Of a DNA stretch of 64,000 nt, positions 10,719 to 43,169 are shown one piece after another. Positions within the stretch are counted from its first letter, which is position 1, and every line of letters begins with the position of its first letter. The notes below the pieces were generated by a model that was given only the letters and a program-made list of their open reading frames with translations, was not told the DNA's origin and ran no database searches. The position numbers and the translations under genes are program-made. The stretch comes from Candidatus Aegiribacteria sp. (lineage in GTDB: Bacteria > Fermentibacterota > Fermentibacteria > Fermentibacterales > JCC-6), in contig JAUWMQ010000003.1 in NCBI GenBank assembly GCA_030613065.1, forward strand, positions 499 through 64,498, read 5' to 3'.

Positions 10719-10722
10719 AATA

Positions 10723-10761: not shown

Positions 10762-10780
10762 TGATTACAGGGGATGAACC

Positions 10781-10912: not shown

Positions 10913-10954
10913 TTTTTTATCTTTATTCAAGACCGGAAGGAGGTCGTCTGGATT

Positions 10955-27659: not shown

Positions 27660-28399
27660 TGCTGAAAATTGAGAACCTCTCCAAAGCTTACGGAGATAAG
27701 AAGGCTGTTATTGATCTTTCTCTGGACATACCTTCCGGCGAGGTATTCGGGCTCCTCGGGCCGAACGGTGCTGGTAAGACAACGACTCTGAAAATGATAC
27801 CAGGTCTTGTAGTACCTGACAGGGGCCGGATTGTAGTTAATTCCGTAGACGCATCAGAGGATCCCGATGGGGCACGGGCCATGATCGCCTATGTACCCGA
27901 TGAACCGACCATGTATCCCAGGCTGTCCGGCAGAGAATTTCTCAGGTTCACAGGCAGAATGAGAGATATTCCTCCGGATGAACTGGAGAGGAGAATAGCT
28001 TTCCATGAGGAGCTTTTCAATATGGGTGGTTGGCTTGACGGCAGGGCCGAGGGATATTCCCACGGCATGATCCAGAGAGTTGTTCTCTCCGTGGCTTTTA
28101 TAGCGCGTCCGGCCCTATACGTAATTGATGAACCCCATGTGGGACTTGATCCCGCGACCGCTGAAACTTTCAACAGGATGGGCAGGGCTGCCGCAGCTTC
28201 AGGGGCAGCGATTATACTTTCAACACATACACTTCCAGTGGCAAGGGCTTTTTGCGACAGGCTGGGTATTATACATGAAGGGCAGCTTATAGAGGTCTTC
28301 AGAACTGACCAGATCGGCGGAGAAGACCTGCAGGATATCTTCTTCAGAATTACCGGTACCGGACCCGCCGATGTATCAAACTTCTTCTCGGGGACGTAG
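27659..28399 (+). CDS. ABC transporter ATP-binding protein (ABC-2 type), with no cognate permease adjacent
   Basis: Walker A 'GPNGAGKTT', a degenerate signature 'YSHGMIQR', and Walker B 'LYVIDEP'. Confidence 0.9.
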   Translation: MLKIENLSKAYGDKKAVIDLSLDIPSGEVFGLLGPNGAGKTTTLKMIPGLVVPDRGRIVVNSVDASEDPDGARAMIAYVPDEPTMYPRLSGREFLRFTGRMRDIPPDELERRIAFHEELFNMGGWLDGRAEGYSHGMIQRVVLSVAFIARPALYVIDEPHVGLDPATAETFNRMGRAAAASGAAIILSTHTLPVARAFCDRLGIIHEGQLIEVFRTDQIGGEDLQDIFFRITGTGPADVSNFFSGT

Positions 28400-28527
28400 C
28401 ACACTTCTTCAACTTACTGGTGCAATTAATATAACAATTATAATTCAATCAACGAATATGCTGAATTTATAATAAATTATCTTATAAATGCAATTTCTTT
28501 ATCTGCTAAAAAAATGAATGCATTCAA

Positions 28528-28591
28528 TTGATAATATTAGCGGATATTGAATAGAATCAGGATTCATAAGCAAGATACCTGATATCGTTGA
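28528..28591 (+). repeat. Left copy of a ~60-bp diverged direct repeat flanking the secreted-protein gene
   Basis: A hand alignment to 29432-29492 gives about 45/55 identical positions: TTGATAATATTAGCGGATATTGAATAGAATCAGGATTCATAAGCAAGATACC... Confidence 0.6.
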
Positions 28592-28640
28592 GGAGAGGGA
28601 ATGAGGGGGGACCGGACGCTATGCCAGGCCCCATTTTGTG

Positions 28641-29294
28641 CTAGAATACAGTTTTGATAGAACCCCATGTTGAGTTTTCGAGAGCTAAAGCTGCTCCGAA
28701 CCGGGCATTTGCGAAAAGCTCACCAGTAGTTACGGGTTCTATGAATTCGATTCTGACGATTTCCTCATCAGAGTAAACTCCCCAGAACACGCCAGCAAGC
28801 GTACCGGCCGAGGAAGTAGTACCAAGAGAACCGCCAGTTCCGAACACTTCGATATAAACACTGCCGGTTGCCATAGGCATAACTATTTCAACTCCGAACG
28901 CATTGACGGGAACCGTAAACGAAAACTCACCATTGTCAGTAAGATTATTGGGACCCACTGTCACACTGGTCACTCCCAGATAGGGGGGAGTAAGAACCAC
29001 ATTGTTGTTACCTTCAAGATTATCAAAAGTTATACCATCTACAATAGCACCAGGGGTGAAACATGCATTATTGGTGAGGCTGTTGAAGGGACCAGGAGCG
29101 GGCTGTACACCGTCGGGAGGAACAATGGTACCTGAGTAGTCCTCGACTGTCAGGCCGGGATAGAGAGCATCGAACAGCGTTGCATCAGTATAGAAAGCAA
29201 CATCCGCCGAAGCCATGCAGGCTGCAAACAGAAGGACGAATATCAATAAAGTAAAATTCTTCAAACGAATCTTCCCTCGTTTTGTGCTTTCCAT
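28641..29294 (-). CDS. Secreted protein of unknown function (signal peptide; C-terminal 'NSTWGSIKTVF')
   Basis: 217 aa. The N-terminus 'KNFTLLIFVLLFAACMASA' looks like a signal peptide. The body is Gly/Thr/Val-rich and beta-like. Confidence 0.55.
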   Translation of the reverse strand: MESTKRGKIRLKNFTLLIFVLLFAACMASADVAFYTDATLFDALYPGLTVEDYSGTIVPPDGVQPAPGPFNSLTNNACFTPGAIVDGITFDNLEGNNNVVLTPPYLGVTSVTVGPNNLTDNGEFSFTVPVNAFGVEIVMPMATGSVYIEVFGTGGSLGTTSSAGTLAGVFWGVYSDEEIVRIEFIEPVTTGELFANARFGAALALENSTWGSIKTVF

Positions 29295-29431
29295 TGTGGA
29301 GAATCGCGCATGAGTAATAAGAAATATCTATCTTCGGATTACCTCCACATTACCTAATCGCAATCATAAGGCCTTCAGTCTGGACATGCAAAACCGGGTT
29401 GACAGGGCGAGGCGATCGAAGTAGTCAACGT

Positions 29432-29492
29432 TTGATTATATTCCCGAATATTGAACAGAATAACAATTCATCAGCAAGATACCCGAGGTTGA
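29432..29492 (+). repeat. Right copy of the ~60-bp diverged direct repeat
   Basis: TTGATTATATTCCCGAATATTGAACAGAATAACAATTCATCAGCAAGATACC..., aligned by hand to 28528-28591. Confidence 0.6.
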
Positions 29493-29595
29493 TATTTATG
29501 AATCATTCAGCAGCTCTCATTACGGTTATACTGATTTCCATGGTGGAGACCGTGGAAATGCTCTTTAATCCCCGGAAAAATGCGGGATTGCGATA

Positions 29596-30231
29596 ATGAA
29601 TCTAAAACCCATCATTTGCAGTATCCCCACCGGACCTCTTGATGTGAACTGCTACATTGTCGGATGTCCTTCAACGCGCGAGAGCGTGATCATCGATCCC
29701 GGAGGTCACGGGGAAAGAATCATTGAAACACTTGAAGGGCTTGATCTGAATCCGATTGCGCTGATAGATACACACGGACATTTTGATCATATCGGTGGAA
29801 ACGCTTATCTGATGGCTCATATGGATTCACTCCGGCTTTACCTTCATGCAGATGACCTTCATTACCTGAGGAATGCCAGGGAGCATGCTGATTACTGGGG
29901 TATGTCTTTTGAAGATTCACCCGAGCCCACCAACCTGATTCAGGATGGAGAACAGATCGATGCAGGAAAGCTTAAGCTGAAGATATTTCACACTCCGGGG
30001 CATTCTCCAGGCGGGATAAGTATCTTTATAACGGGTCACGTATTTACCGGAGATGCACTTTTTGAGGGATCAATTGGTAGAACTGACCTCCCCGGAGGGA
30101 ATTATGACCAGCTGATTTCCTCAATCAGGAAGAAACTCCTTGTTCTTCCCGATGATACCATCGTGCATCCTGGTCATGGCCCTGAAACAACTATAGGTAT
30201 AGAGAGAAGAATCAACCCCTTTCTTCAGTGA
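29596..30231 (+). CDS. MBL-fold metallo-hydrolase (hydroxyacylglutathione hydrolase-like)
   Basis: 'IDTHGHFDHIGG' (HxHxDH) motif and 'FHTPGHSPG'. 211 aa. Confidence 0.9.
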   Translation: MNLKPIICSIPTGPLDVNCYIVGCPSTRESVIIDPGGHGERIIETLEGLDLNPIALIDTHGHFDHIGGNAYLMAHMDSLRLYLHADDLHYLRNAREHADYWGMSFEDSPEPTNLIQDGEQIDAGKLKLKIFHTPGHSPGGISIFITGHVFTGDALFEGSIGRTDLPGGNYDQLISSIRKKLLVLPDDTIVHPGHGPETTIGIERRINPFLQ

Positions 30232-30974
30232 CTGATAACCCCGGTTACCATCCTGAACATACCATCGGGACCTTCAAAACCCGGTTCTGTTGCGTTCAGG
30301 ATAATGGCAACCAGGCTGTCCTCCAATACATAGACATCACTGATACGGTAGTTCGAAACGTACTGGTAACCGAATTTCGGTGATTCATCAAGAAGATGCA
30401 TTACTGTGTTACCGTTCGAATCTTTGAGCAGCACCTCAAGAAGAACAGGCGTCTCGAACATGGAAAGCCACTCTGGATGTGAGTCAGGCATATCCTTGTG
30501 GTTAATAACACGAAGGCTGTATTCCGGTCCGCTCCACATCAGTGAACCCACCCATGTAACGAATGAAACCATTTCAGGATCTACGCTTCTATCGGTCAGA
30601 GGATGGCAGATGCAGTGAACACCCTCGTTCTCCGGTGAAATACTCAGGCTGTCCAGAAAGGAATCGGCAGAATCGAGAACGATTTCTCCGGCCGGATTCA
30701 TGGAGTTTTCATAGCACATTTCAACACCCTCACTGTACATCATAGTTTCGGTCCATTGTACTTCAAATTTCCTGATTACACTGTTATCAGAGATTGACAT
30801 AACCACTATTTCAGCACCCGGGAATCCACTTCCGTCCTCGATCCAGTATTGTGAAAGCGCGGCGTATCTTCCATCATCGGAAAAGCCGAGGAACTCAACT
30901 GAAGCCAGAAAGGCGGCACCTGCCGCGGCGGTTGCGAGGAAAAGGAACAGAATAGTGAGTACGGAAGATTTCAT
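30225..30974 (-). CDS. Secreted protein (DUF2259-like from memory, unverified)
   Basis: Signal peptide 'VLTILFLFLATAAAGAA', then 'GFSDDGRYAALSQYWIEDGSGFPGAEI'. The first ~75 codons are duplicated at 32896-33119. Confidence 0.55.
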   Translation of the reverse strand: MKSSVLTILFLFLATAAAGAAFLASVEFLGFSDDGRYAALSQYWIEDGSGFPGAEIVVMSISDNSVIRKFEVQWTETMMYSEGVEMCYENSMNPAGEIVLDSADSFLDSLSISPENEGVHCICHPLTDRSVDPEMVSFVTWVGSLMWSGPEYSLRVINHKDMPDSHPEWLSMFETPVLLEVLLKDSNGNTVMHLLDESPKFGYQYVSNYRISDVYVLEDSLVAIILNATEPGFEGPDGMFRMVTGVISH

Positions 30975-31154
30975 ATTACTCCTTTATCGCAATGTTTGAT
31001 CAGAACTGTGAACATCCCTTTCATGAGTGTATAAATAGTATAGTTAATAGGCTGTGGAAGTGAAAATTCCAGGAATATTTCTCAGGGACGGTGCAAAGTG
31101 ATTAAATCGATGAATCCATTTACTGGTAAAACCATCCGATCATGGGCGGGAAAC
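30751..31154 (+). repeat. Copy A of a 404-bp direct repeat (5' end of the secreted-protein gene, divergent promoter region, first 19 codons of the ALDH gene)
   Basis: Aligned by hand to 32896-33300, with about 20 differences including 1 indel (~95% identity). Confidence 0.9.
31098..31154 (+). pseudogene. Orphan 5' fragment of the aldehyde dehydrogenase gene (19 codons) inside repeat copy A
   Basis: 'VIKSMNPFTGKTIRSWAGN' versus the intact 'MLKSINPFTGKTIRSWAGN' at 33244. The reading frame continues into unrelated sequence up to the stop at 31277. Confidence 0.75.
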
Positions 31155-31295
31155 AGGCGCTCATCTCGAAATGGTGATGTATCCGGAGCATCTCAATACT
31201 TCTGCGAGATACGCCGTTCAACACAGGGCTTCAGCATTCACTACCGGGCAGTCATCAAGACTGACGATGCACAGTGAATCTCATGAGCGTCTTTC

Positions 31296-31820
31296 TCACG
31301 GGAGTGCATGATCGTGAGCAGATGGAGTCGTGATATCCGATGGAAGGTTTTCGGGTAAACTGCCCGGTGGCTGATTTGGCCCGATGTCTGTTTCTACGAC
31401 GCTCTCTTCTAATACAAAGACTGTATCACCGAAAGAGTATTCAAGTGTGTATGAATGAGGTGCTGTGAGAGTGTAAGTTATGGCAGGATCATCATATCCC
31501 AGGAACTCCTGCTCTGTTGCAGGAAGTGCTCCAAACTGCAATTCGTAGTTTTTAGCCATTTGTGAGAGAGCGTCGAGCTGACCGTTGAACTGCTGGGTTA
31601 CCTCCTGAGGAATGATCGGTTCTGTGATCTCAGCTTCACCGGAAAACAGGAACTGCACAGCAAGTACAATAACAAGAACTACTGATGCTCCTGCAAGCAG
31701 GTATCCGGGAGGTACCTTTTTCTTCTCTTCCTTTTTCCTGTGTAATTGTTTTTCCTTCCTGCTCAGCGCTTTTTCAGCTTCATCAAAATACCCATTTTCA
31801 GTGGTGTCAGAATTGCTCAT
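31296..31820 (-). CDS. Single-pass membrane protein, function unknown (downstream of the pilin gene)
   Basis: ATG 31820 has an AGGAGG Shine-Dalgarno (the ORF-track start at 31868 lacks one). Lys-rich N-terminus, one TM helix 'LLAGASVVLVIVLAVQFLF', and an extracytoplasmic C-terminal domain. Confidence 0.45.
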   Translation of the reverse strand: MSNSDTTENGYFDEAEKALSRKEKQLHRKKEEKKKVPPGYLLAGASVVLVIVLAVQFLFSGEAEITEPIIPQEVTQQFNGQLDALSQMAKNYELQFGALPATEQEFLGYDDPAITYTLTAPHSYTLEYSFGDTVFVLEESVVETDIGPNQPPGSLPENLPSDITTPSAHDHALP

Positions 31821-31898
31821 TGGAGACCTCCTTTTACCCGTATTACACTGTCCGCAAGTGTTGATCAATGTCTTGAGAACCTCATTCCAGACAACGCT

Positions 31899-32318
31899 TT
31901 ATTCAGGTGTCCAGCCAAGCTCCCAGGTGGCACTGCCATCCCAGAAGTACCCGTGCTGGGGGAAAACATAGAAACAGACTGAGTAATAATAGGAATATGT
32001 AGTGCCGCCCACGGTGTATATATATCCATATACCCAGTACTTCCCAGCTGTTGAGGAACTCGAGCCGCTTGCAGTTGGGCAACGCATGCTAGATGCGTTT
32101 GCCATCACGCAGTCAAGGCTTTCGATGTCAGTCGGATATGTGTTTCTTTCCGCGAAGTATATGTTCATCCCTGATGCAAGGTTTCGCATGTTTGATCTGC
32201 ACGCGGATTTCTGGGAATCAGTCTTGATATCTCCGAATTTTGGAATGGCTATTGCGGATATTATTCCTATGATTACGACAACGATCATAAGTTCTATCAG
32301 AGTAAATCCACGTTTCAT
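31899..32318 (-). CDS. Type IV pilin / pseudopilin with prepilin N-terminal methylation motif and a very aromatic C-terminal region
   Basis: 'MKRGFTLIELMIVVVIIGIISAIAIPKF' (G|FTLIE cleavage/methylation site). GGGAGG Shine-Dalgarno upstream. The last ~48 aa contain about 10 Y, 4 W and 3 F. Confidence 0.8.
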   Translation of the reverse strand: MKRGFTLIELMIVVVIIGIISAIAIPKFGDIKTDSQKSACRSNMRNLASGMNIYFAERNTYPTDIESLDCVMANASSMRCPTASGSSSSTAGKYWVYGYIYTVGGTTYSYYYSVCFYVFPQHGYFWDGSATWELGWTPE

Positions 32319-32407
32319 GATCGAACACCTCCCTTAATAAACTATATCCCGTTAGTGTTTACCTGTAATCTACTGTAAGAACATACTACATTCACAGAAG
32401 TATCAAA

Positions 32408-32895
32408 TCAGACATCGAAGTTCCTGGCAAGGGTGAGGTGAAAGTGTTCACCTTTGTAGACCACACTCTTTGAGTACTGATTGAAGCTCATCCTCTCAAG
32501 GGAAAATGGAGCCCTTGAGATATATTCGCTGAGAGTCTTACGACCATCGGCATCACAGGCTTTTATGGGCTTGCCGCAGTGAACGCTGAAACCGCTGTGC
32601 TTCCAGGAGTTCATGTTCTCCACCAGTTTCTCTGAGATCATGTCCTCATCGAGAAGCATCTTGAAGACAAGACCGGCAAAGACTCTTTCAATACCATGTA
32701 TGTCAGCGGAATCAAGATCTGGCATACTATGAATATTGCCATCTCTGTCCCAGCAGACATCCGTTACAAGACAATGGACGTGAGGGTTCCAGCTGGCCAT
32801 GCCTCCGAAGGTCTGGACCAGTACACCACCAGGGAAAACATCATCCATATCAAGTGCTTCATGAACAAACACTGTCAATGAGTTCCATGTTTTCT
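32408..32895 (-). pseudogene. IS91-family (HUH/Y2 rolling-circle) transposase fragment, truncated at both ends
   Basis: 'VQTFGGMASWNPHVHCLVTD' (HUH-type HxH motif) and 'YISRAPFSLERMSF...VVYKGEH' (Y2_Tnp region). The N-terminal Zn-binding part and the C-terminal third are missing. Its 5' end abuts repeat copy B. Confidence 0.6.
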
Positions 32896-33119
32896 GTCCA
32901 TTGTACTTCAAATTTCCTGATTACACTGTTATCAGAGATTGACATAACCACTATTTCAGCGCCCGGGAATCCACTTCCGTCCTCGATCCAGTATTGTGAA
33001 AGCGCGGCGTATCTTCCATCATCGGAAAAGCCGAGGAACTCAACTGAAGCCAGAAAGGCGGCACCTGCCGCGGCGGTTGCGAGCAGAAGGAACAGAATAG
33101 TGAGTACGGAAGGTTTCAT
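32896..33119 (-). pseudogene. Orphan 5' fragment (~75 codons) of the 30225-30974 secreted-protein gene inside repeat copy B
   Basis: 'MKPSVLTILFLLLATAAAGAAFLASVEFLGFSDDGRYAALSQYWIEDGSGFPGAEIVVMSISDNSVIRKFEVQWTE' is near-identical to the N-terminus of the intact gene, then diverges at the repeat boundary. Confidence 0.8.
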
Positions 33120-33300
33120 AATACTCCTTAATCGCAATGCTTGATCAAAACCGTGAACATCCCTTTCATGAGTGTATAATATAGTATAGTTAATAGGCTG
33201 TGGAAGTGAAAATCCCAGGAATATTTCTCAGGGAAGGTGAAAAGTGCTTAAATCGATAAATCCATTTACGGGTAAAACCATCCGATCATGGGCTGGAAAC
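32896..33300 (+). repeat. Copy B of the 404-bp direct repeat
   Basis: See 30751-31154. 405 bp, ~95% identical. Confidence 0.9.
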
Positions 33301-34623
33301 ACTCCTGAAGAAGTCGAGAAAACCATTGAGAAGGCAGACAGAGCTTTCAGAATCTGGCGCGATACCAAGCTGGATAAACGCGCAGAGAAGCTGAGGAATC
33401 TTGCTTATCTGCTTGACTCAGGGAAGCACCAGCTTGCAGTGGAGATGGCTTCAGAGATGGGCAAACCTGTCACCCAGGGACAGTCCGAAATTGAAAAATG
33501 CGCGTGGGTCTGCAGGTACTACGCGCAATACGGCTCCCGATTAATTGCTAAGAAAAGCAGGAAAACAGACGCAGATAAGTGCTACGTCTGTTATCAGCCC
33601 CTCGGAGTCATATTCGCAGTGATGCCCTGGAATTTCCCGTTCTGGCAGTTTTTCAGATTTGCGGCACCTGCCGTGATGGCTGGAAATACCTTCGTTCTCA
33701 AGCATTCCCCGAACGTTACCGGGTGTGCCCTGAGCATCCCGGAGCTGTTCAGGGATGCTGGCTTTCTGGATGGTCTGGCCGGGCTTATTCTCGTTCCTGA
33801 GGAAAAGGTTCCCGAAGTGTCCAGCATAGTAATTGCCGATCACAGGATAAAGGCAGTTACGCTAACCGGGAGCGGAACAGCAGGCGGGGCAGTCGCATCG
33901 GGGGCGGGATCGGCTATAAAGAAGTGTGTGCTGGAACTAGGAGGGAGTGACCCTGCGATAATTCTGGAAGATGCGGATCTTAAACTTGCAGCCGCTGAAT
34001 CGGTGTTTTCCAGGCTGATCAATGCAGGGCAGAACTGCATTGCCTCCAAGAGGTTCATTGTGATTGAGAGTGTTTATAGCGAGTTTCTTGAACTGCTTGT
34101 GAAGGAGATGCAGATCACCAGGATGGGCGACCCTATGGATATGAAAGTAGACCTGGGACCAATGGCCAGGTACGATCTCCGTGATAACCTTCATCGACAG
34201 GTTATGCAGAGCGTTGATCTTGGAGCTGAGCTGATCATGGGAGGCAACATACCGGAGCATCATGGAGCTTTCTATCCGCCTACAGTACTCACGGGCTGCA
34301 GAAAGGGAATGCCTGTTTTTGATGAAGAAACCTTCGGTCCTGTAGCTGCAGTCTGTTCGGTAAGGAATGAGGGAGAAGCCGTTAAGCTTGCCAACGATAC
34401 GTCTTACGGCCTCGGAGCGTCAGTCTACACACGTGATGTTCGCCGGGGAGAGAAGATAGCTCTTGAGATGAATGCAGGAGCCTGCTTCGTGAACACATTT
34501 GTCCGGTCAGATCCCAGGCTGCCTTTCGGTGGAATCGGTCGTTCAGGTTTCGGCAGAGAGCTGTCTCGCAGCGGGATGCTTGAATTTACAAACTGTAAAA
34601 CCGTTTACATCATGAATGGATAA
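33244..34623 (+). CDS. NAD(P)+-dependent aldehyde dehydrogenase (succinate-semialdehyde dehydrogenase-like)
   Basis: 'LELGGSDP', catalytic Cys in 'GQNCIASKR', and 'EETFGPV'. 459 aa, GTG start. Confidence 0.9.
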   Translation: MLKSINPFTGKTIRSWAGNTPEEVEKTIEKADRAFRIWRDTKLDKRAEKLRNLAYLLDSGKHQLAVEMASEMGKPVTQGQSEIEKCAWVCRYYAQYGSRLIAKKSRKTDADKCYVCYQPLGVIFAVMPWNFPFWQFFRFAAPAVMAGNTFVLKHSPNVTGCALSIPELFRDAGFLDGLAGLILVPEEKVPEVSSIVIADHRIKAVTLTGSGTAGGAVASGAGSAIKKCVLELGGSDPAIILEDADLKLAAAESVFSRLINAGQNCIASKRFIVIESVYSEFLELLVKEMQITRMGDPMDMKVDLGPMARYDLRDNLHRQVMQSVDLGAELIMGGNIPEHHGAFYPPTVLTGCRKGMPVFDEETFGPVAAVCSVRNEGEAVKLANDTSYGLGASVYTRDVRRGEKIALEMNAGACFVNTFVRSDPRLPFGGIGRSGFGRELSRSGMLEFTNCKTVYIMNG

Positions 34624-35764
34624 TGGCTGTTGAAAGAGGATCGGAGATGAAGCGGTGGTAAACGCGAATTCTCCTGTGGAGACGTTTCTCATAGAGTTTC
34701 CACATTGCCTGGATCTTTTTATTGTCTTCCAGTTCATGGTTGCTCTCAGCGAATTCCATTCTCCTTTTAAAAGCGCTCTTTCCGATTTCGTAGGTCATAA
34801 GAGCATCCACGCCTTTTCCCTGGTATTCCGGAAGGATGCCGGCAAGGTAGAAATCAAGGATTTTGCTCTTTTTCATTGCCCTGAGAATATGGATGAAACC
34901 GAACGGGAAAAGCCTCCCCTTTGCCTTCTGGAAAGCCTTTGACAGATTGGGCATTGCAATTATGAATCCCACTAGCTTGTCTCCGTCAACAGCAAGTTTG
35001 ATGAACTCCGGATCCACCTGTCCAAGATAGGCTTTTATGTAGTAATTAATCTCTTCTTCATCAAGCAGAGTTGTGCCGTACAGCTCTTTGTAGGATTCAT
35101 TCAAAACGTCGAAAACCTGGTGTCCCCATTTTTTCGAGAGAGCTTTTGTAGAATTCTCATTGAATACCTTTACAGTGCTCCTTTTCTTTATCAGTGCTGT
35201 CAGGCGTTCCACCTTTTCGGGGAGAGCATCGGGTACGGTTATCTTGAATTCAACGTAGTCCACTTCTTTCACGTAACCTCTTGATGTTACCAGATCATTG
35301 TACCATGCAGGATTGTAACTGCCTGATATTGTAGGCAGCTCGTCGAACCCTTCAATGAGAAATCCCGTCATATCATTGTCTGTGAAACCCATAGGTCCTG
35401 AAACCTCGGTCATGCCATTTTCAGCGAGCCAGTTCTCCGCAGCGTCGAGGAGTGTGTTTGCAGTTTCCCGGTTATCCTCGCATTCGAACCATCCGAACCT
35501 TCCGCAGTTCCTGTCCGTTTTATCCAGATATCTTTTATTTATAATGGCTGCTATACGACCGATGGGTTTGCCATCTCGCCAGGCCAGAAAGAATTCGGTA
35601 TCACAGTATCTGTAAGCTGGATTCTTCCGGGGATCGAACTGATCCTTTTCCTGGGAGATAAGAGGAGGTATCCAGAGCGGGTCATCACTGTAAAGCCTGT
35701 AGGGAAGCATGATGAATTGTTTCAATTCGCTTTTTGTTTTTACGGGTTTAATAACAGCAGACAT
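34610..35764 (-). CDS. GNAT-family N-acetyltransferase-like protein (~380-aa family)
   Basis: N-terminus 'VKTKSELKQFIMLPYRLYSDDPLWIPPLISQEKDQFDPRKNP...GRIAAIIN' is typical of this widespread family. 14-nt convergent overlap with the ALDH gene. Confidence 0.65.
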   Translation of the reverse strand: MSAVIKPVKTKSELKQFIMLPYRLYSDDPLWIPPLISQEKDQFDPRKNPAYRYCDTEFFLAWRDGKPIGRIAAIINKRYLDKTDRNCGRFGWFECEDNRETANTLLDAAENWLAENGMTEVSGPMGFTDNDMTGFLIEGFDELPTISGSYNPAWYNDLVTSRGYVKEVDYVEFKITVPDALPEKVERLTALIKKRSTVKVFNENSTKALSKKWGHQVFDVLNESYKELYGTTLLDEEEINYYIKAYLGQVDPEFIKLAVDGDKLVGFIIAMPNLSKAFQKAKGRLFPFGFIHILRAMKKSKILDFYLAGILPEYQGKGVDALMTYEIGKSAFKRRMEFAESNHELEDNKKIQAMWKLYEKRLHRRIRVYHRFISDPLSTAIIHS

Positions 35765-35895
35765 AAAAGCTCCTTCTGGTTCTGGTATTGGAAGAATCTA
35801 ATCTTATGAAGTGCCGGGTCAAATACCCTGATATTCTGGAACTATCCACCATGTTCGAACTATCAACTAAATGAAGTTCAACAGAAGGGGGCCCT

Positions 35896-36771
35896 ATGAA
35901 AAACAATGGTAAATTCCAGAATGGATTGATTCCTCCGGCTCTCAGTATCCTGTTTACCGCGGGTTTTTTGCCGGTGGGAACGGTTTCGGCTTCGGATCAG
36001 CTCAGCAACCATATCGGTACAGTTGATGATAATGGCTCAAGTTCAGCTCTTTCAGTATCCCTCTTAACGAGAACTTCTGCTCTTTGGAGCAACCCCCAGT
36101 GGCAGGAATTCAAGAGGATCTGGAAGAAGCTGGACAGTATTGCCCCGGCTGACGGTGATTACAGCTCCAACCAGCTTGATTATGAAAAGCTAAACAAGAT
36201 CAGGATTGAGCTGGACAACAGTTACGTTGAATTAATGAGAATCGCTGACGAAATAACTATTGACTCTCTCGATATCGTACTCCTCCACAGGCTGGCATCC
36301 GACAGGCTTGATATTCTTGCCTACGGTTCGGCACTACCCATGACAAGGATGATGCTGCCACCCATTTCTGATCAGACTGATGATCTCCTTCCACAGATCG
36401 AAGCCAGGATTGACACAGTTGTTCGCCTGAGGGAGGATGGTCTGATCTCATCCGGGGAAATGATAACAACCTTCAGCAACCTGAGATCTTCCATCGACTT
36501 GTATTATCTTCTGGAAACTATCAACAGTGAAACCGGTTATTCAGGGGTGCTATGGACGGTTCGATGGCCAATGGAGGTTGATCGGATACAGCCGTACCTT
36601 GACAGTATTAAAACCTCTGTAATGGAAAGTCTCAGGAATGCAGGATCAGAGAATGAGGAAGGGTACAGCGTGATGCTTGAGGATCTGCGGAATATGGAGC
36701 AATCCATAAGCAATGTGCAGGACAGATTGCCTGCTCTGCACGATCTTCTCCTTGATCTTGAGCTTTTCTGA
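35896..36771 (+). CDS. Secreted all-helical protein, function unknown (no Cys)
   Basis: 291 aa with a signal-like N-terminus 'LIPPALSILFTAGFLPVGTVSA'. Its stop is 8 nt before the radical SAM start. Confidence 0.5.
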   Translation: MKNNGKFQNGLIPPALSILFTAGFLPVGTVSASDQLSNHIGTVDDNGSSSALSVSLLTRTSALWSNPQWQEFKRIWKKLDSIAPADGDYSSNQLDYEKLNKIRIELDNSYVELMRIADEITIDSLDIVLLHRLASDRLDILAYGSALPMTRMMLPPISDQTDDLLPQIEARIDTVVRLREDGLISSGEMITTFSNLRSSIDLYYLLETINSETGYSGVLWTVRWPMEVDRIQPYLDSIKTSVMESLRNAGSENEEGYSVMLEDLRNMEQSISNVQDRLPALHDLLLDLELF

Positions 36772-36778
36772 TAACTCG

Positions 36779-37747
36779 ATGAAAGGCCCCTTGTTCGTTT
36801 TCGAGATCACACCCCAATGTAACCTTGCCTGCACTTACTGCTACAATGTATGGAAGACTGATAGTGAACACTACCCCAGGGAACTCTCGCTGGACGAGAT
36901 TGAGAACCTCGCGGATTCAATTCAAGCTGCGCATCCGATTTCAGTTACCTTAACCGGCGGAGAACCTATTCTGAGAGATGATCTTCATGAGATCGTCAGT
37001 ATCCTTAGGAAGCGCGGAATTCTGGTTGGAATTGCAACCAATGGTATGCTTCTTGATCGGGATACAGCACATTCGCTGAAGGAAGCAGGTGCTTCATGGT
37101 TTGAAGTATCCGTCACTTCAGTTTCCGGAGAGAGATACACTGATCTGACGGGCACCGATGGGTTTGATGATGTAAAACGGGCTATGCTCGCTGTGAAATC
37201 CGCCGGTGCCAGGTTAACCATTTCACATATCATAACTTCACTGAATTACGGTGATGCAGGGCAGGTTGTTGACCTTGCTTACGCGTTCTCGGCGGATGCG
37301 ACAGCCCTCAACCGCTTCGTACCCGGCGGAACTGGCCTTGAGAACAGGCATCTTCTGCCCACCCTCGAACAGCTTGATTCCGCCCTGAAAAGCGCCGGTG
37401 AAAGATCACTCATGTCCCCCGGAATGACAGTATACGCCGCCATTCCAGTAGAGGATTGTCTGCTGCATCACAGTGATTACCCCGGTGTATCGTTCGGATC
37501 CTGCATATGCGGGGCGGGAAAATGGGCGATAAGCCCCTCAGGAGATCTGAGAGTATGCGAACAGAGTTCGCACATCATCGGAAGCCTCCTGGAAAGATCT
37601 TTTGAGGAACTGTCCCGTTCTGAATTCGTTGAGGAATTCCGGTGCAGCAACAGGAGCTCAGACTGTGAATCGTGCAGTTCCATGACCGTATGCGGAGGAG
37701 GGTGCAGATTTCTCAGGGAAATACCCACATGCGGAGTTATTCCCTGA
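36779..37747 (+). CDS. Radical SAM enzyme with a C-terminal SPASM domain
   Basis: 'CNLACTYCYN' (CxxxCxxC) near the N-terminus and 'CESCSSMTVCGGGC' (CX2CX5CX3C SPASM motif). ATG 36779; the ORF-track start at 36713 overlaps the upstream gene. Confidence 0.85.
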   Translation: MKGPLFVFEITPQCNLACTYCYNVWKTDSEHYPRELSLDEIENLADSIQAAHPISVTLTGGEPILRDDLHEIVSILRKRGILVGIATNGMLLDRDTAHSLKEAGASWFEVSVTSVSGERYTDLTGTDGFDDVKRAMLAVKSAGARLTISHIITSLNYGDAGQVVDLAYAFSADATALNRFVPGGTGLENRHLLPTLEQLDSALKSAGERSLMSPGMTVYAAIPVEDCLLHHSDYPGVSFGSCICGAGKWAISPSGDLRVCEQSSHIIGSLLERSFEELSRSEFVEEFRCSNRSSDCESCSSMTVCGGGCRFLREIPTCGVIP

Positions 37748-37799
37748 CATGTTCAAGCCCCTTTGAGACAAGGTCTTTCACATGGTCATCATCCAACCT
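37676..37799 (+). repeat. Copy 1 of a 124-bp direct repeat (3' end of the radical SAM gene plus 3' end of arsR)
   Basis: Identical to 41186-41309 except for one T/C difference (37751 vs 41261), which is synonymous in the arsR frame. Confidence 0.95.
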
Positions 37800-37853
37800 T
37801 GAGGCTTTCCTGAAATAGATGCATATTTAGAGTAAATACCATGAAATTCCAAC

Positions 37854-37881
37854 TTGACATGTTCGATTTTCATGGTATTAT
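37854..37881 (+). promoter_or_regulatory. Near-consensus sigma70 promoter positioned for a leaderless transcript of the ATPase gene
   Basis: TTGACA (37854-37859), N16, TATTAT (37876-37881). ATG 37888 lies 7 nt after the -10 and has no Shine-Dalgarno. The promoter sits inside the inverted repeat TACCATGAAA (37837-37846) / TTTCATGGTA (37869-37878). Confidence 0.6.
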
Positions 37882-37887
37882 CATCAC

Positions 37888-39036
37888 ATGGTACAGCGGG
37901 ATTGTCTTCTGTCTGAGTTGAATCGAGCCCTTGGAAGGAGCCGGATAGTACTTCTTTCCGGTCCCAGACAGAGCGGCAAGACCACTATAGCCAGAGAGCT
38001 TGTCTCACTGGAGTCGGTGAACTACTTTGACCTTGAGAACCCTCTTGATTTTAACAGATTATCAGAACCATTCACTGCTCTTAACGATCTGCGTGGCCTG
38101 GTTGTTATAGACGAGGTGCAAAGGTCACCTGATCTTTTCCCGGTACTTAGAGTGCTTGCCGACAGGCCTGACATTCCGGCGACTTTCCTTATTCTCGGCA
38201 GCGCATCCGGCCAGTTACTGAGGCAGAGCTCAGAGAGCCTTGCCGGAAGGCTTGAGATACAGAACATCACTGGATTCACTCTTGATGAGGTGGGAGCTGA
38301 AAAACATAAACAGCTCTGGCTGAGAGGTAGCTTCCCCAGATCTTTCCTGGCTGACAGTGAGGAGGACAGCTCAGCATGGAGGCGAAACTTCATGCAGACG
38401 CTGCTCGAGCGGGACTTCCCTCAATGGGGAGTGAGAGTACCTGCAACAGCACTTGGGCGTTTCTGGAGAATGCTGGCTCATTATCACGGGCAGTACTGGA
38501 ATGCCGCAGAGCCTGCCAGAGTTCTCGGAGTAAGTCAGACTACCGTGAGAAGACATCTCGACATAATGACTGATGCATTCATGATAAGGCAGTTGCAGCC
38601 CTGGCTTGCCAATCTGGCTAAAAGACAGGTAAAGTCACCTAAGATATACATCAGAGACAGCGGTCTTCTCCATCAGCTTCTTGGAATTGAGACGGAAAAA
38701 GGAGCTCTAACCAATCCGAAAACTGGAGCATCCTGGGAAGGCTTTGTGATAGAGCAGGTCATTGCATCCACCTGGCACGACAGCGTACACTTCTGGGCTT
38801 CACATCAGGGAGCTGAGATTGATCTGATACTGACAAGAGGAGATGATCTGTTCGGTGTTGAATGTAAACTCTCAGATGCACCGAAGCTGACTCTCTCCAT
38901 GAAAACCACCTTGGATCAACTGGGGCTCTCCAGGATTGCTGTCATCTACCCAGGCATGAAAAGATACCAGCTGTATCCTGGAATAGAGGCTGTTCCTGTC
39001 AGCTCTCTTGAAGAAAGAGAAAGTCTCTTCCGCTAA
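37888..39036 (+). CDS. AAA+ ATPase (AAA_14) with a DUF4143 C-terminal PD-(D/E)xK-like nuclease module
   Basis: Walker A 'GPRQSGKTT', Walker B 'VVIDEVQ', and a C-terminal 'GAEIDLIL...FGVECKLS' (D...ExK) pattern. Confidence 0.85.
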   Translation: MVQRDCLLSELNRALGRSRIVLLSGPRQSGKTTIARELVSLESVNYFDLENPLDFNRLSEPFTALNDLRGLVVIDEVQRSPDLFPVLRVLADRPDIPATFLILGSASGQLLRQSSESLAGRLEIQNITGFTLDEVGAEKHKQLWLRGSFPRSFLADSEEDSSAWRRNFMQTLLERDFPQWGVRVPATALGRFWRMLAHYHGQYWNAAEPARVLGVSQTTVRRHLDIMTDAFMIRQLQPWLANLAKRQVKSPKIYIRDSGLLHQLLGIETEKGALTNPKTGASWEGFVIEQVIASTWHDSVHFWASHQGAEIDLILTRGDDLFGVECKLSDAPKLTLSMKTTLDQLGLSRIAVIYPGMKRYQLYPGIEAVPVSSLEERESLFR

Positions 39037-39095
39037 CCGCTTCTCCCCAGTTTGGTCATATTCGGCAAAACAAGTTCTACTGAAAGGAATCCACC

Positions 39096-41135
39096 ATGAG
39101 AAACGAATACCCGATAACGAAAAAATGCGATGCTTCTGATGTGTTCTTCGGAGAGGTTATTGCCGATCCGTACAGGTGGCTGGAAGATGACACTTCACCT
39201 GAGGTCGCTTCATGGGTTAAGGCTCAGAATCAGGCTACTTTCTCTCATCTGGATTCCATTTCCCTGCGGCAGATCATCCGGGACCGGATGGCTCAACTCT
39301 GGAATCATGCCAGATACGGCGCTCCTTTCAGGCGCGGTGAATGGACATACTTCTTTCTGAATAGCGGGCTGCAGAGCCAGGCTGTCCTGTACAGGGAGAA
39401 GGATGGTGGGGAACCTGAAGTGTTTCTTGATCCCAACACCTTTTCATCTGACGGAACAACATCCCTTTCCGGCATAGGCTTTTCCCCTGATGGTTCCTTT
39501 GCCTGTTACAGCGTGTCCGAAGGTGGAGCGGACTGGCAGACCGTTAGAGTCATCGCCTGTGATGCTCCCGAAGAAGTATTGGAGACAGTTTCCGATGTGA
39601 AGTTTTCGGCACTGAGCTGGAGGGGTAGTGAGGGTTTCTACTACAGCAGCTATCGGAAACCGGAATTCGGCACGGTTCTTTCTGCGAAGACAACTGAACA
39701 CAGACTGATGTTCCACAGACTGGGGTCACACCAGGATTCCGATGTACTTGTCTTCGGAGGTTCAGAGACTCCACGCAGGTATGTGAACGGTGAAGTGACA
39801 GAGGACGGCAGATGGTTGTGGATAACCGCTTCTGTTTCCACAACAGGTGACGAGCTTTATGTGCGTGACCTTTCCACCGCTGATTCTTCTCTGGTGCAGC
39901 TCGCTTCGGGTTTCGAGAGAGAGTACAGGGTGGTAGACAGCCTTGGAGATAATCTCTTCGTGGAAACCAACCTGGATGCGCCCAACAACCGTCTGGTTCT
40001 GGTTGATATGTCCTCTCCCTCCTCTTCATGGAAAGATGTGATTCCCGAGAGGGGTGAAGTTCTCTCGGTTACCCATGGCGGAGGATACCTGTTCGCCACA
40101 TATCTGCAGGACGCGTTATCAGTTGTGGAGCAGGTTGACCATTCCGGGAACGTGGTACGGGTGGTTGAACTCCCGGGCACCGGTACCTCGCAGGTCTTCA
40201 CCGGACTCCGGGATGATACTGATGTCTACTACAGCTTCACAAGCTACACCCATCCCCGGGAGATATGGGCTCTGGATGTTGTTTCAGGAGAGTCCTCCAG
40301 GTTCAGGGCTTCAGGGGTGGAGTTCGATCCATCAATGTATGTGTCTGATCAGGTCTTTTTTCAATCGGCTGACGGAACCACCGTACCGATGATGATAACT
40401 CGCAGGAAGGATGTAGTCCCCGCCGGCAACAATCCGTGCCTGCTCTACGGCTACGGCGGATTCAATGCGAAGATCACCCCGGCCTTCAGTGTATCTGCGG
40501 TTGCGTGGATGGAACAGGGCGGAGTGTATGCTGTGCCCAACATTCGCGGTGGAGGTGAGTACGGAGAGGCATGGCATCTGGCCGGAACGAAAACTTCCAA
40601 ACAGAATGTCTTCAACGATTTCATTGCAGCGGCTGAATACCTGTGCACTTCAGGCTGGACAAACCCATCGAGACTTACTGTTTCAGGCGGCAGTAACGGC
40701 GGTCTTCTTGTGGGAGCGGTGATAACACAGAGACCGAAACTGTTCGGTGCAGCACTTCCTGCAGTAGGAGTGCTGGACATGCTCCGCTATCACCGGTTCA
40801 CAGCCGGTGCAGGCTGGGCATACGACTACGGTACAGCAGAGGACAGTGAAGAGATGTTCAGGTACCTGCTGGGATACTCACCGCTGCACAATGTGAAACA
40901 CGGCACATCCTACCCGGCGGTCATGGTGACCACCGGAGATCATGATGACCGGGTTGTGCCTGCTCACTCCTTCAAGTTCGCAGCGGCCCTGCAGGCAGCT
41001 CAGGAAGGGCAGGCTCCGGTTCTCATCCGGGTTGATGTGAACGCCGGACATGGAGCGGGAAAACCCATGGGCATGCTGATAGACTGCGAGGCGGACAGGC
41101 TCTCTTTCGCTCTGCACCATCTCAGACAGCTCTGA
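39096..41135 (+). CDS. Prolyl oligopeptidase (S9A family)
   Basis: N-terminus 'DPYRWLEDD', a beta-propeller region, catalytic Ser 'GGSNGGLLVGA', and Asp/His in 'GDHDDRV' and 'GHGAGKP'. 679 aa. Confidence 0.93.
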   Translation: MRNEYPITKKCDASDVFFGEVIADPYRWLEDDTSPEVASWVKAQNQATFSHLDSISLRQIIRDRMAQLWNHARYGAPFRRGEWTYFFLNSGLQSQAVLYREKDGGEPEVFLDPNTFSSDGTTSLSGIGFSPDGSFACYSVSEGGADWQTVRVIACDAPEEVLETVSDVKFSALSWRGSEGFYYSSYRKPEFGTVLSAKTTEHRLMFHRLGSHQDSDVLVFGGSETPRRYVNGEVTEDGRWLWITASVSTTGDELYVRDLSTADSSLVQLASGFEREYRVVDSLGDNLFVETNLDAPNNRLVLVDMSSPSSSWKDVIPERGEVLSVTHGGGYLFATYLQDALSVVEQVDHSGNVVRVVELPGTGTSQVFTGLRDDTDVYYSFTSYTHPREIWALDVVSGESSRFRASGVEFDPSMYVSDQVFFQSADGTTVPMMITRRKDVVPAGNNPCLLYGYGGFNAKITPAFSVSAVAWMEQGGVYAVPNIRGGGEYGEAWHLAGTKTSKQNVFNDFIAAAEYLCTSGWTNPSRLTVSGGSNGGLLVGAVITQRPKLFGAALPAVGVLDMLRYHRFTAGAGWAYDYGTAEDSEEMFRYLLGYSPLHNVKHGTSYPAVMVTTGDHDDRVVPAHSFKFAAALQAAQEGQAPVLIRVDVNAGHGAGKPMGMLIDCEADRLSFALHHLRQL

Positions 41136-41185
41136 AGGGAAGACATCTTTCCGATCAAGGGTTTCATGAAGATACATCGTGAGAG

Positions 41186-41309
41186 AGTTCCATGACCGTA
41201 TGCGGAGGAGGGTGCAGATTTCTCAGGGAAATACCCACATGCGGAGTTATTCCCTGACATGCTCAAGCCCCTTTGAGACAAGGTCTTTCACATGGTCATC
41301 ATCCAACCT
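41186..41309 (+). repeat. Copy 2 of the 124-bp direct repeat
   Basis: See 37676-37799. Here it carries the functional 3' end of arsR and an orphan 3' fragment of the radical SAM gene. Confidence 0.95.
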
Positions 41310-41555
41310 GTAAAATACGTGCCTTCCTTTTTTTCGGCTCCTGACAAGTCTGGCTGTGCGCAGGGATCTGAGCTGGTGGGAAACTGCAGAAACACTTACA
41401 TCCGTCTTCTCCGCCAGTTCACAAACGCATTTCTCACCGGAGAACATTGACATAAGAAGAAGCAGCCTGGTCGGATCAGCCATCTGATGAAATAGTTCAG
41501 CCAGAACTTCAACTTCTTCGGTGTGAACCTGCAGTTCTTCTCCTGTACCGGTCAT
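41247..41555 (-). CDS. ArsR/SmtB-family metalloregulator
   Basis: 'FSGEKCVCELAEKTDVSVSAVSHQLRSLRTARLVRSRKKGRHVFYRL' shows the CVC metal site plus a winged HTH. Immediately downstream of the efflux permease in the same operon. Confidence 0.9.
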   Translation of the reverse strand: MTGTGEELQVHTEEVEVLAELFHQMADPTRLLLLMSMFSGEKCVCELAEKTDVSVSAVSHQLRSLRTARLVRSRKKGRHVFYRLDDDHVKDLVSKGLEHVRE

Positions 41556-42782
41556 CTATTCCTCCTTTACATCGTAGCCAAGTTCCCTGATTGCCTTAAC
41601 AGCATCTATACTGCTAAATCCCGGGCTTCCATCCAGAGCTATCTCGACGGTACCCTTCCCGGACGAGGTGATTACACCAAGTATTCCCGGCGATTCCTTA
41701 AGAGCCCTGCTGACTTTCGTCTCGCAATTCGAGCACTTCATACCGTCAACATTGAACTTCATTGTCTTACCTCTTCTAGAGGATTTCAGCTTGAGATCAA
41801 GAAAACCTTTGAATGCGAACCATACCGTCCCAGCGATCAGGAGTACTCCGGCAGCAATACTGAGTAAACCTGTAATCGAATCCATACCGTGTCCGGCATG
41901 GTAAGCCCGGGATACTGAAACATTGAGCGAGTTAAGGATTCCTCCGGCAGCAAGACTGATAATTATAACGGTCAGTATGTAAACCAGGAAAACACTCGTT
42001 CCAAGGGTTTTGCGAACCGCGCCCATTGTCGCGGCGTTCGTAGCCGGACCGGCCATGAGAAATACCAGAGCGCTGCCCACGGGGAATCCGGCGTATATGA
42101 GACCGGCCGCGATAGGTACCGATGCGACAGAGCAGACATAGAGAGGAATTCCGATTGCAAGCGCCGCCAGCAGTCCCAGCGGACCTTCGAGAATCGTATA
42201 TTGTGACAGCTGCCCGGGTTCAAGGAAAGTGGTGATCAGCGCGGATAACACTATTCCGAAGACAAGCCATCCGTAGATATCCCTGAAAAGGCCATTGAAA
42301 GAGTAGTTCCATATCCTCAGGGGCAGCGGACCGGTTTCAATATCTGTGCACACCGGAGAGGTTCCCTGATCGTTCTTACCGTTGCCTATTTTATCGACAA
42401 TTGTTCCTCCAAGTAGACCCGCAACGAAGGCCGCGATTACCTTTGCAAGTGCAACCGGCCATCCTAGAATCGCCCATGTTACTGATATGGAATCGACTCC
42501 CGTCTGGGGAGTGCTTATGAGGAACGATGTGACAGCTCCCCTGGATGCTCCGTCCCTTCGAAGGCCCAGTGCCGCAGGCAGTACTCCGCAGGAGCAGAGC
42601 GGAAGGGGAACACCCACCAGAGCTGCCTTTGCGCTGCTTTTGAATCCCGGTTTCCCCAGGTGGGATAAAATCCTGTCTTTCTTTACGAAAACATGCAGGA
42701 GTCCGGCCAGAAGAAGTCCCAGAATGAGCGATGGCGCAAGAGCTGTAATTGTACTCCATAACGCATTAATAAATTCAATCAT
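41556..42782 (-). CDS. Metal efflux permease (DUF318/ArsP-like, SO_0444-type) with a C-terminal HMA domain
   Basis: Multi-TM with 'LPLCSCGV', and a C-terminal 'MKFNVDGMKCSNCETKV' (GMxCxxC heavy-metal-associated domain). Confidence 0.8.
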   Translation of the reverse strand: MIEFINALWSTITALAPSLILGLLLAGLLHVFVKKDRILSHLGKPGFKSSAKAALVGVPLPLCSCGVLPAALGLRRDGASRGAVTSFLISTPQTGVDSISVTWAILGWPVALAKVIAAFVAGLLGGTIVDKIGNGKNDQGTSPVCTDIETGPLPLRIWNYSFNGLFRDIYGWLVFGIVLSALITTFLEPGQLSQYTILEGPLGLLAALAIGIPLYVCSVASVPIAAGLIYAGFPVGSALVFLMAGPATNAATMGAVRKTLGTSVFLVYILTVIIISLAAGGILNSLNVSVSRAYHAGHGMDSITGLLSIAAGVLLIAGTVWFAFKGFLDLKLKSSRRGKTMKFNVDGMKCSNCETKVSRALKESPGILGVITSSGKGTVEIALDGSPGFSSIDAVKAIRELGYDVKEE

Positions 42783-42807
42783 TGAAAATACCTCATTATA
42801 TTATTGT

Positions 42808-42831
42808 ATATTTGAACAATTGCTCAAATAT
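42808..42831. promoter_or_regulatory. 24-bp imperfect palindrome, candidate ArsR/SmtB operator
   Basis: ATATTTGAACAATTGCTCAAATAT is palindromic except for one base pair. It contains the TGAACA/TTCAAATA-type half sites seen in SmtB/CzrA/CadC operators, and it overlaps the -10 element and the start-site region. Confidence 0.65.
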
Positions 42832-42857
42832 TATAATAATGAAATACTCCTTGTCAA
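42830..42857 (-). promoter_or_regulatory. Consensus sigma70 promoter of the permease-arsR operon
   Basis: On the minus strand: TTGACA (42857-42852), N16, TATAAT (42835-42830), about 48 nt upstream of ATG 42782. Confidence 0.7.
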
Positions 42858-43169
42858 CAACTGAACAGATATCCCCCTGAATAACAATGATATCAAGCTT
42901 ATACTCAGAAGTTCTTGATTCCCCTTGGTTGATGCAATCCCAAAGGGAAGAAGTGAAATTTTCACTCTGCTTATTCTTATTATATCCTGTATTTTTATGA
43001 ATTGAAACAATGAAGGGATACCTCATGAGATTGTCTGCTGTTGCAGTTCTGCTGCTTGTTGCGATAAATATCGTCTCTGGAAGTACTCCTGCCACCGCTG
43101 ATGTACGATCATATCTCGAATTGAAAACATGCTGGTCTTGATTGAGGTTGTACTTCCGTGACTGGGGAA

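Follow-up and report, generated by a model that had tools for sequence, protein, structure and literature searches.

Duplicated gene starts around a pilin module and an IS91-family transposase relic in Candidatus Aegiribacteria: a plausible case of rolling-circle capture and homologous rescue

How does a small group of genes come to lie between two copies of the same piece of chromosome while the genes on either side stay intact? This question is raised by a locus in a 64,000-nucleotide stretch of a Candidatus Aegiribacteria genome (assembly GCA_030613065.1, contig JAUWMQ010000003.1, positions 499 to 64,498), which was analysed as a whole and is called the window in the following. Here two direct repeats, copy A (30746-31155) and copy B (32891-33301), enclose an insert of 1735 bp (31156-32890) that carries a fragment of an IS91-family transposase gene, a type IV pilin-like gene and a gene for a membrane protein, all three on the minus strand. 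An initial annotation of the bare sequence had described this repeat-insert-repeat layout and proposed that it arose by rolling-circle capture followed by homologous re-integration. The layout was borne out with coordinates agreeing to about five bases (the insert had been put at 1741 bp), as was the content of the insert, in which the transposase fragment matched PF04986 and NF033538 and the pilin gene PF07963. We regard capture and rescue, in an adjusted form, as plausible but not established. Precise alignment of the two copies comprises 410 bases with 17 mismatches and one 1-nt indel (95.6% identity), on which a repeat finder, MAFFT and local alignment agree; strict identity begins at 30751 and 32896, respectively. 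Self-BLAST of the window returned only two direct repeats in total, this pair being one of them, so that the 410-bp repeat stands above the background.

The duplicated segment consists of the starts of two divergent genes and the region between them. On the left lies an intact gene for a secreted DUF2259 protein of 249 aa (30225-30974, minus strand; PF10016, E 4.9e-12) and on the right an intact aldehyde dehydrogenase (ALDH) gene encoding 459 aa (33244-34623, plus strand; PF00171, E 1.2e-130). Copy A holds the first 76 codons of the functional DUF2259 gene, the 123-bp intergenic region and an orphan ALDH start of 19 codons (31098-31155, plus strand). Copy B holds an orphan DUF2259 start of 76 codons (33119 to 32892, minus strand), whose reading frame runs on for 10 further codons before reaching a stop, then the intergenic region and the functional ALDH start at 33244 on the plus strand. 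DUF2259 and ALDH each retain their own 5' end and promoter beside the insert. The duplicated DUF2259 promoter in copy B now faces the transposase fragment, the pilin gene and the membrane-protein gene, and transcription from it could likely read into them.

We compared the locus with relatives of the two flanking proteins, all of which come from Candidatus Aegiribacteria or Fermentibacteria metagenome-assembled genomes (MAGs). The best identities are 73–75% for DUF2259 and 85–88% for ALDH, within orthologue ranges of 54–75% and 68–88%, respectively. In 12 of 14 related loci ALDH and DUF2259 are divergent neighbours about 123 bp apart. This represents the empty site, and its spacing equals that found within either repeat copy. 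We conclude that this lineage has gained the insert and that the repeat arose by duplication of the target. No relative examined carries the pilin cassette at the ALDH/DUF2259 site. The initial annotation had named two findings that would speak against its proposal, a transposase-like fragment without an IS91 match and relatives with the cassette but without the duplication; the fragment does match IS91 models, as described below, and no relative of that kind was seen. A genome of the same species was not found, genome and metagenome collections reaching only 73–74% protein identity and look-ups of the exact DUF2259 and ALDH proteins returning nothing.

The divergence of about 5% between the copies had been read as the mark of either an old event or a donor from a related strain. 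To polarise the differences, both copies were aligned with the orthologous region of seven relatives. In the ALDH part (31094-31148) the derived base is found in copy A, the copy with the orphan ALDH start, at every site, and in the DUF2259 part (30750, 30816, 30939 and 30941) it is found in copy B, the copy with the orphan DUF2259 start; in the intergenic region derived bases are mixed between the copies. Altogether, 8–9 of 9 informative coding-end sites carry the derived allele in the orphan half (sign test, p ~0.004–0.008). Since the derived bases lie in the orphan halves, the 4.4% divergence reflects old decay in place and not a diverged donor. The first of the two readings is thereby kept, and a divergent donor is rejected by the outgroups. 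The pattern supports an old event in which a single sequence was duplicated in place, its redundant halves having decayed since. Mismatches are unevenly spread, with only 1 in the 188 bp next to the transposase fragment (30751-30938 versus 32896-33083) compared to 16 in 222 bp (~7%) elsewhere (Fisher p 0.0007); the 188-bp tract was probably homogenised by gene conversion from the functional DUF2259 copy. Polarised decay of repeat copies is a simple way of telling an old duplication in place from a foreign donor.

The transposase fragment (32411-32890, minus strand) is a dead internal relic covering residues ~156–316 of ~450 in an open frame of 160 codons. It matches PF04986 (Y2_Tnp) with an E value of 1.4e-9 and 38.6 bits (cut-off 20.9) at profile positions 5–135 of 183, and reaches 33.1 bits against NF033538, the equivalog model for IS91 transposases (transpos_IS91), at model positions 140–255 of 356, as expected of a fragment. 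The relic is broken at both ends. The initial annotation had placed its broken 5' end exactly at the copy B junction, and tblastn with longer relatives confirms this, homology starting at 32890, one base from the edge of copy B. The HUH motif (NPHVHCLV) is retained. The other model proposed for checking the fragment, the zinc-binding domain PF14319, is absent from the relic, whose homology begins at residue ~156, and is present in full-length relatives with 60.8 bits. On its 3' side the relic breaks off at ...ARNFDV and a stop, before the tyrosine region (QVIYYGAYSQA in relatives), and the YYGAYS tyrosines are not in it. Without zinc finger and catalytic tyrosines the relic could not have acted itself; to judge from its sequence, it is a descendant of an IS91-family member, not a functional member, and could not itself have moved DNA.

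All 71 relatives of the relic in the databases come from this lineage, and 70 of them, the exception being the window's own, are fragments of at most 283 aa. Complete copies are present on four genome contigs (L014, L016, L019 and L023), measure ~1.73 kb and encode a protein of ~450 aa with Zn_Tnp_IS91 and Y2_Tnp domains. The full-length protein of L016 scores 53.4 bits against Y2_Tnp and 134.7 bits against NF033538 (cut-off 125), and 145.7 bits against NF052416, the NCBIfam model of ISCR clade Ia, the cut-off of which is 925. The nearest named element is ISPps1 at ~28% identity, and the best plasmid match reaches 39%. We take the family to be a divergent, lineage-specific branch of IS91 and not an ISCR. 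The full-length elements start with CTTGAC at the left end; the right end reads ...TTCCTATTG (also given as ...AAATTCCTATTG) and is followed by CTTG, CTTA or CTCA. IS91-family elements have distinct terIS and oriIS ends and a CTTG/GTTC-type tetranucleotide, and make no target duplication (PMC13181058). The ends, as read from the contigs, fit this rule. Internal deletions at short repeats are found in many of the lineage's copies of the element (e.g. those encoding proteins P0013, P0030, P0058 and P0062) and show frequent slippage or switching.

A second structure of the same layout lies 4.4 kb from the first (37676-41309), placing two such structures within 11 kb. Its repeat copies (37676-37799 and 41186-41309) measure 124 bp and differ by 1 mismatch. 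They represent the overlapping 3' ends of convergent radical SAM and ArsR genes, both of which are intact: copy 1 contains the 3' end of the radical SAM/SPASM gene with an overlapping orphan ArsR 3' end, and copy 2 overlaps the functional ArsR 3' end. In a relative (L007) the two genes are adjacent without an insert. The second insert of 3386 bp (37800-41185, plus strand) encodes an AAA_14/DUF4143 ATPase (37888-39036) and a prolyl oligopeptidase (39096-41135). At its right end, abutting the right-hand repeat copy, we found a 69-bp relic of an IS91 transposase gene on the minus strand (41127-41195, residues ~156–178).

Both relics, at 32890 and 41195, start at the same nucleotide of the transposase gene, at the same end and in the same orientation; on the plus strand the sequence reads ...GAGTTCCATG and the repeat follows directly. 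The start of the 5'-truncated relic is CATGGAAC, and the internal site around the breakpoint is ...AATGAGTTCCATGC... in the element. The two relics in the window are only ~76% identical and no closer to each other than to copies of other species. Two independent breaks falling within ±4 nt of each other in a 1.7-kb element have a chance of ~0.5%. The shared breakpoint lies at a CTTG-like CATG adjoining GTTC. At the relic/repeat junction of the second structure nine bases (AGTTCCATG) are common to the transposase gene and the native radical SAM gene, and at that of the first structure the overlap is 3–4 bases (CAT/CATG). The nine-base identity is what would be expected if the transposase site and the target were both cut as look-alike sites. 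A pseudo-origin cut after GAAC on the sense strand was considered as well and rejected, as it suits the second junction and not the first, where 7 extra transposase bases are present.

A pattern scan of genome contigs for sequence just past the breakpoint found 13 copies, 12 of which continue upstream. The remaining one, L079 (3192-3770), carries an internal deletion ending at the same tryptophan codon (~156) as the breakpoint; in L063 (7143-8066) such a deletion ends ~8 nt away. The breakpoint region may be a hot spot, for which these cases are suggestive only. In another genome (MAG GLR63; L029, 6543-6863) a transposase relic borders, with its 3' break, on a truncated gene for an AAA_14/DUF4143-type ATPase, 47% identical to the ATPase of the window's second insert.

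The layout recurs beyond the window. Among loci fetched with the transposase as query, three show a repeat-insert-repeat structure with an IS91 relic at most 50 bp from an inner repeat edge: L047 (4604-6402), with a 100-bp repeat of 95% identity around a 1.6-kb insert in a divergent intergenic region; L040 (4743-7077), with a 218-bp repeat of 91% around a 1.9-kb insert between convergent genes; and L032 (4852-6672), with a 154-bp repeat of 82% around a 1.5-kb insert. Insertion is also seen at the ALDH/DUF2259 site itself. In a different species (L005) a 147-bp repeat of 92% identity (673-819 and 7838-7984) encloses an unrelated 7-kb insert with genes for a 277-aa secreted protein, a GGDEF/PAS protein, an FG-GAP protein of the type IX secretion system (T9SS) and a lipoprotein, and L008 has a 4.8-kb insert at this site with no detectable repeats. 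A module of 893 bp, encoding a secreted protein of 270–277 aa without a Pfam domain, is shared at 86.6% identity between L005 (826-1718) and L047 (4926-5818), that is, between a Candidatus Fermentibacteria MAG and a Candidatus Sabulitectum MAG, and both copies lie inside repeat-insert-repeat structures. Such sharing suggests that small cargo modules move between these genomes, recently and horizontally.

How could such structures be formed? Rolling-circle capture with homologous rescue would account for them as follows. An active IS91-family element would supply the transposase in trans, and this would cut a resident copy adjoining the cargo at its internal CATG, the CTTG-like site beside GTTC. 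Aberrant rolling-circle replication with read-through would then yield a circle made of cargo, part of the insertion sequence (IS) and flanking chromosome. A single homologous crossover in the flank would bring the circle into an intact chromosome and leave a repeat-insert-repeat, and later deletions would remove the remainder of the IS. This course of events is favoured by the layout, by a breakpoint used twice, by the nine bases in which the cut partners agree and by relics being enriched at inner repeat edges. Of the proposal in the initial annotation, the ISCR1-like layout, the empty sites and the second case with the same breakpoint uphold the capture and re-integration part, and we hold it tentatively in the adjusted form.

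Several observations weigh against it. Full-length relatives, which the initial annotation had recommended looking for, do exist and have defined ends, but no such ends are present in the window: neither oriIS nor terIS was found at either junction or elsewhere, word-7 BLAST of five full elements detecting only the two internal relics. When the left ends of the inserts and the spacer next to the relic were compared with IS ends by Smith-Waterman alignment against shuffled sequences, nothing was obtained at p <= 0.03; the 92 bp between relic and pilin gene show no similarity to IS ends, and there is no oriIS at the cargo boundary. The window contains no intact IS91-family element, and the relic is without any catalytic tyrosine. 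Relative to the transposase, the cargo is found towards oriIS, but the DNA mobilised by one-ended transposition is that beyond terIS. A terIS-like hairpin at the shared breakpoint was rejected, DNA folding there being no better than that of shuffled sequences (z +1.0 to +1.7). The left junctions of both structures display neither microhomology nor a motif, and the two inserts share no left-end sequence or terminus. In the three recurrent loci with relics, orientation and breakpoint of the relic differ from those in the window, and L005 shows the layout at the identical site, where no trace of IS91 could be detected. No genome representing an intermediate was found when genome and metagenome contigs were searched with the flanking proteins and with the membrane protein, the latter giving no match. 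Had a later deletion removed an IS/flank junction, this alone would have placed the IS break at the edge of the repeat. Finally, capture and rescue require three steps. In the proposal of the initial annotation it is the lack of oriIS and terIS, the position of the cargo and the relic-free L005 that do not fit.

A replication-based mechanism explains the layout about as well, because of the L005 structure without a relic and the microhomology at the junctions. In its one-step form, a serious rival that we rate somewhat lower, a DNA end or single strand with the cargo, terminating in the IS relic, would be joined to a nascent strand in the course of replication or repair. The 3' end of this incoming piece would re-anneal by microhomology a few hundred bases back and prime new synthesis, so that the interval is copied again, as in microhomology-mediated break-induced replication (MMBIR) or fork stalling and template switching (FoSTeS). 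The IS relic would then be a passenger or a fragile site and not the agent. A single event suffices here, and variable repeats of 100–410 bp follow naturally. The nine shared bases (AGTTCCATG) at the second relic/repeat junction and the 3–4 bases (CAT/CATG) at the first provide the microhomology, and the variable breakpoints and orientations in L047, L040 and L032 as well as the frequent internal deletions at short repeats in the IS copies of this lineage agree with such template switching. However, the same transposase nucleotide was used twice in the window by relics of ~76% identity (p ~0.005), and the nearby breakpoints in L079 and L063 suggest a site-specific cut. Replicative insertion also leaves the other junction of both structures without microhomology and does not account for the enrichment of IS91 relics at inner repeat edges.

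The breakpoint could also belong to an undescribed mode of gene acquisition in Fermentibacteria/Aegiribacteria, in which the HUH transposase cuts internal look-alike sites (after ...GAGTTCCATG) together with matching chromosomal sites and delivers the cargo with a target duplication of 100–400 bp, leaving the two neighbouring genes and their promoters unharmed. We think this unlikely, albeit not far-fetched. Such duplicative rolling-circle transposition would differ both from canonical IS91 insertion, which makes no duplication, and from ISCR1 rescue, which proceeds via a conserved segment.

An incidental association of relic and repeat has a lower standing still and appears improbable to us. 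In this case a complete IS91 element or a composite with the cargo landed in the ordinary way, the duplication arose separately, e.g. by end joining or by fill-in of a double-strand break with a wide stagger, and trimming followed later. The event is old enough for secondary deletions, as judged by the one-sided divergence of ~7%; a deletion spanning the IS/flank junction automatically sets the inner repeat edge; and the IS copies of this lineage are mostly fragments, with 70 of the 71 database relatives at 283 aa or less. Yet the ends of the two window relics at the same nucleotide are left unexplained, as is the common layout at four or five unrelated loci, and since the IS91 family makes no target duplication (PMC13181058) an extra process is still required.

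We also asked if the structure was produced by the assembly. The window derives from a metagenome assembly, and a copy difference of 4.4% resembles co-existing strains, two variants of which might have been stitched in series. A Logan contig (L001, run SRR12623517) is 100% identical to the window from 32593 to 31038, encodes the exact pilin protein, spans the junction of insert and copy A and carries bases specific to copy A. The assembly at this junction is reproduced by an independent assembler. The contig ends at 31038, within a stretch of 33 nt common to both copies, where a graph with k=31 must branch, and both sequence types are therefore in the sample. A bubble of strains, however, has no path along which a repeat-insert-repeat and its two novel junctions could form, the distribution of derived bases follows function, unlike that expected of strain variants in functional genes, and the same layout occurs in MAGs of other studies and assemblers. 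We therefore regard an assembly artefact as very improbable. Hardly credible at all is an integrase-driven genomic islet whose attachment (att) site includes replacement ends of the target genes: direct repeats restoring flanking genes are typical of integrative elements, but neither insert has a recombinase gene, the repeats are far longer than att cores, and the boundaries at the same site differ between the window and L005.

In every model, the events that survive are those leaving both neighbours intact. The duplicated pieces are consequently gene starts with a shared promoter region, as at the first locus, or overlapping gene ends, as at the second.

The cargo of the first structure is a module of two genes. 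The pilin or pseudopilin-like gene (31899-32318, minus strand) encodes 139 aa with a prepilin cleavage and N-methylation motif at the N-terminus followed by a hydrophobic helix. It matches PF07963 (E 2.4e-8; 33.6 bits, cut-off 21.2) and TIGR02532 (37.7 bits, cut-off 16.3), with partial PilA/GspG matches; among the NCBIfam models it reaches no cut-off of a specific pilin equivalog, and these do not fix its subtype. The protein is 80–86% identical to pilins of L054, L059 and L062. An oriIS-like 11-mer (TTCCTATTATT) lies within the pilin coding sequence (31985-31995) on the minus strand, which is also the relic's strand; ~0.1 occurrences are expected by chance in the window, and we consider it probably a coincidence. 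The second gene (31296-31868, minus strand) encodes a bitopic membrane protein of 174 aa if started from the ATG at 31820, or 190 aa from a TTG. Its homologues are 59–74% identical. The protein has no Pfam or NCBIfam match, and the core of its AlphaFold2 (AF2) model, a helix and 3 strands with a predicted confidence (pLDDT) of ~90, has no fold match in the PDB.

In Aegiribacteria the module is conserved at 59–86% identity, the membrane-protein gene always following the pilin gene, while its neighbourhood differs in each genome and nowhere in the relatives examined adjoins a transposase. It is located beside T9SS-type secreted proteins in L059–L061 and after TrmB and a BNR protein in L062. In L054 (1-3871) its neighbours are hybrid sensor kinases and a PilB/T2SSE ATPase with a fused receiver domain, a hint that the module is part of a regulated pilus system; in both assemblies of the L054 genome the sequence breaks off within the pilin gene. 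Native flanks were carried along with the module. The spacer between relic and pilin gene (32319-32410, minus strand) includes ~60 bp of the native upstream region of the pilin gene with its ribosome binding site (RBS), as seen by alignment with L062, L061 and L059. At the left end of the insert (31156-31295, minus strand) ~105 bp gave no match, including word-7 BLAST and Smith-Waterman comparison with IS91 ends, and the ~45 bp that follow correspond, in alignments with L062, L061 and L054, to native sequence downstream of the membrane-protein gene. The base composition of the insert is not anomalous.

An Rfam scan of positions 28000-43000 identified no RNA family. Elsewhere in the window an imperfect palindrome of ~60 bp (10712-10771) with 84% self-complementarity lies ~100 bp upstream of an open reading frame (10868-12880).

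IS91 and ISCR elements are known mainly as capture devices for resistance and virulence genes in Proteobacteria, and evidence for the capture process has mostly been deduced from end products, complex class 1 integrons among them. Should the transposase be causally involved, the loci described here offer independent natural examples of capture and rescue together with a specific internal cleavage site that is testable with oligonucleotides, and they would account for the insertion of small gene modules between conserved genes without harm to the neighbours. Should it not be, they are still clean bacterial examples of templated insertion with a long flanking duplication.

The closest known counterparts are complex class 1 integrons with ISCR1, the accepted origin of which is a circle that aberrant rolling-circle replication generates and homologous recombination rescues (PMC6834847, PMC3575428). 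In these, the 3' conserved segment (3'-CS) is followed by ISCR1, the captured gene and a second 3'-CS. The same sequence of parts is observed in the window at the first locus and at 37676-41309, with a copy of the segment, an IS91-type transposase without its terIS side abutting it, cargo and a second copy. Several features are different: the transposase is reduced to a dead internal piece, and oriIS is missing from the boundary of the captured DNA; what is duplicated at the first locus, two gene starts with the promoter region that they share, belongs to the ordinary chromosome and is not a conserved segment of a mobile element; and the cargo is a pilin module instead of a resistance gene, in a host from the uncultured Fermentibacteria/Aegiribacteria.

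With IS91, IS801 and IS1294 the elements of this lineage share the transposase family, full-length relatives having Zn_Tnp_IS91 and Y2_Tnp domains and passing NF033538, and asymmetric ends with a CTTG-type tetranucleotide at the left end and beside the right end. Unlike insertions of the IS91 family, which make no target duplication (PMC13181058), the structures in the window duplicate 124–410 bp. One-ended transposition keeps the oriIS end constant and takes up DNA beyond terIS, whereas in the window it is an internal site towards terIS that stays constant, with the cargo towards oriIS. The arrangement of segment, insert and segment with both flanking genes restored is also the outcome of Campbell-type integration of a circle by a single crossover, as for IS26 translocatable units and suicide plasmids; in contrast to plain integration of this type, a circle containing both foreign cargo and the local 410-bp segment needs a source, and the two copies began as one sequence. 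Templated insertions by MMBIR/FoSTeS resemble the structures in that the flanking duplication varies in length and a junction shows microhomology, but here the microhomology is confined to one of two junctions, a donor nucleotide was used twice, and a relic of an HUH transposase is present. The layout itself is already known; what is new is the phylum in which such a captured segment, linked to IS91 and bordered by duplicated flanks, is found, and a cargo other than resistance genes.

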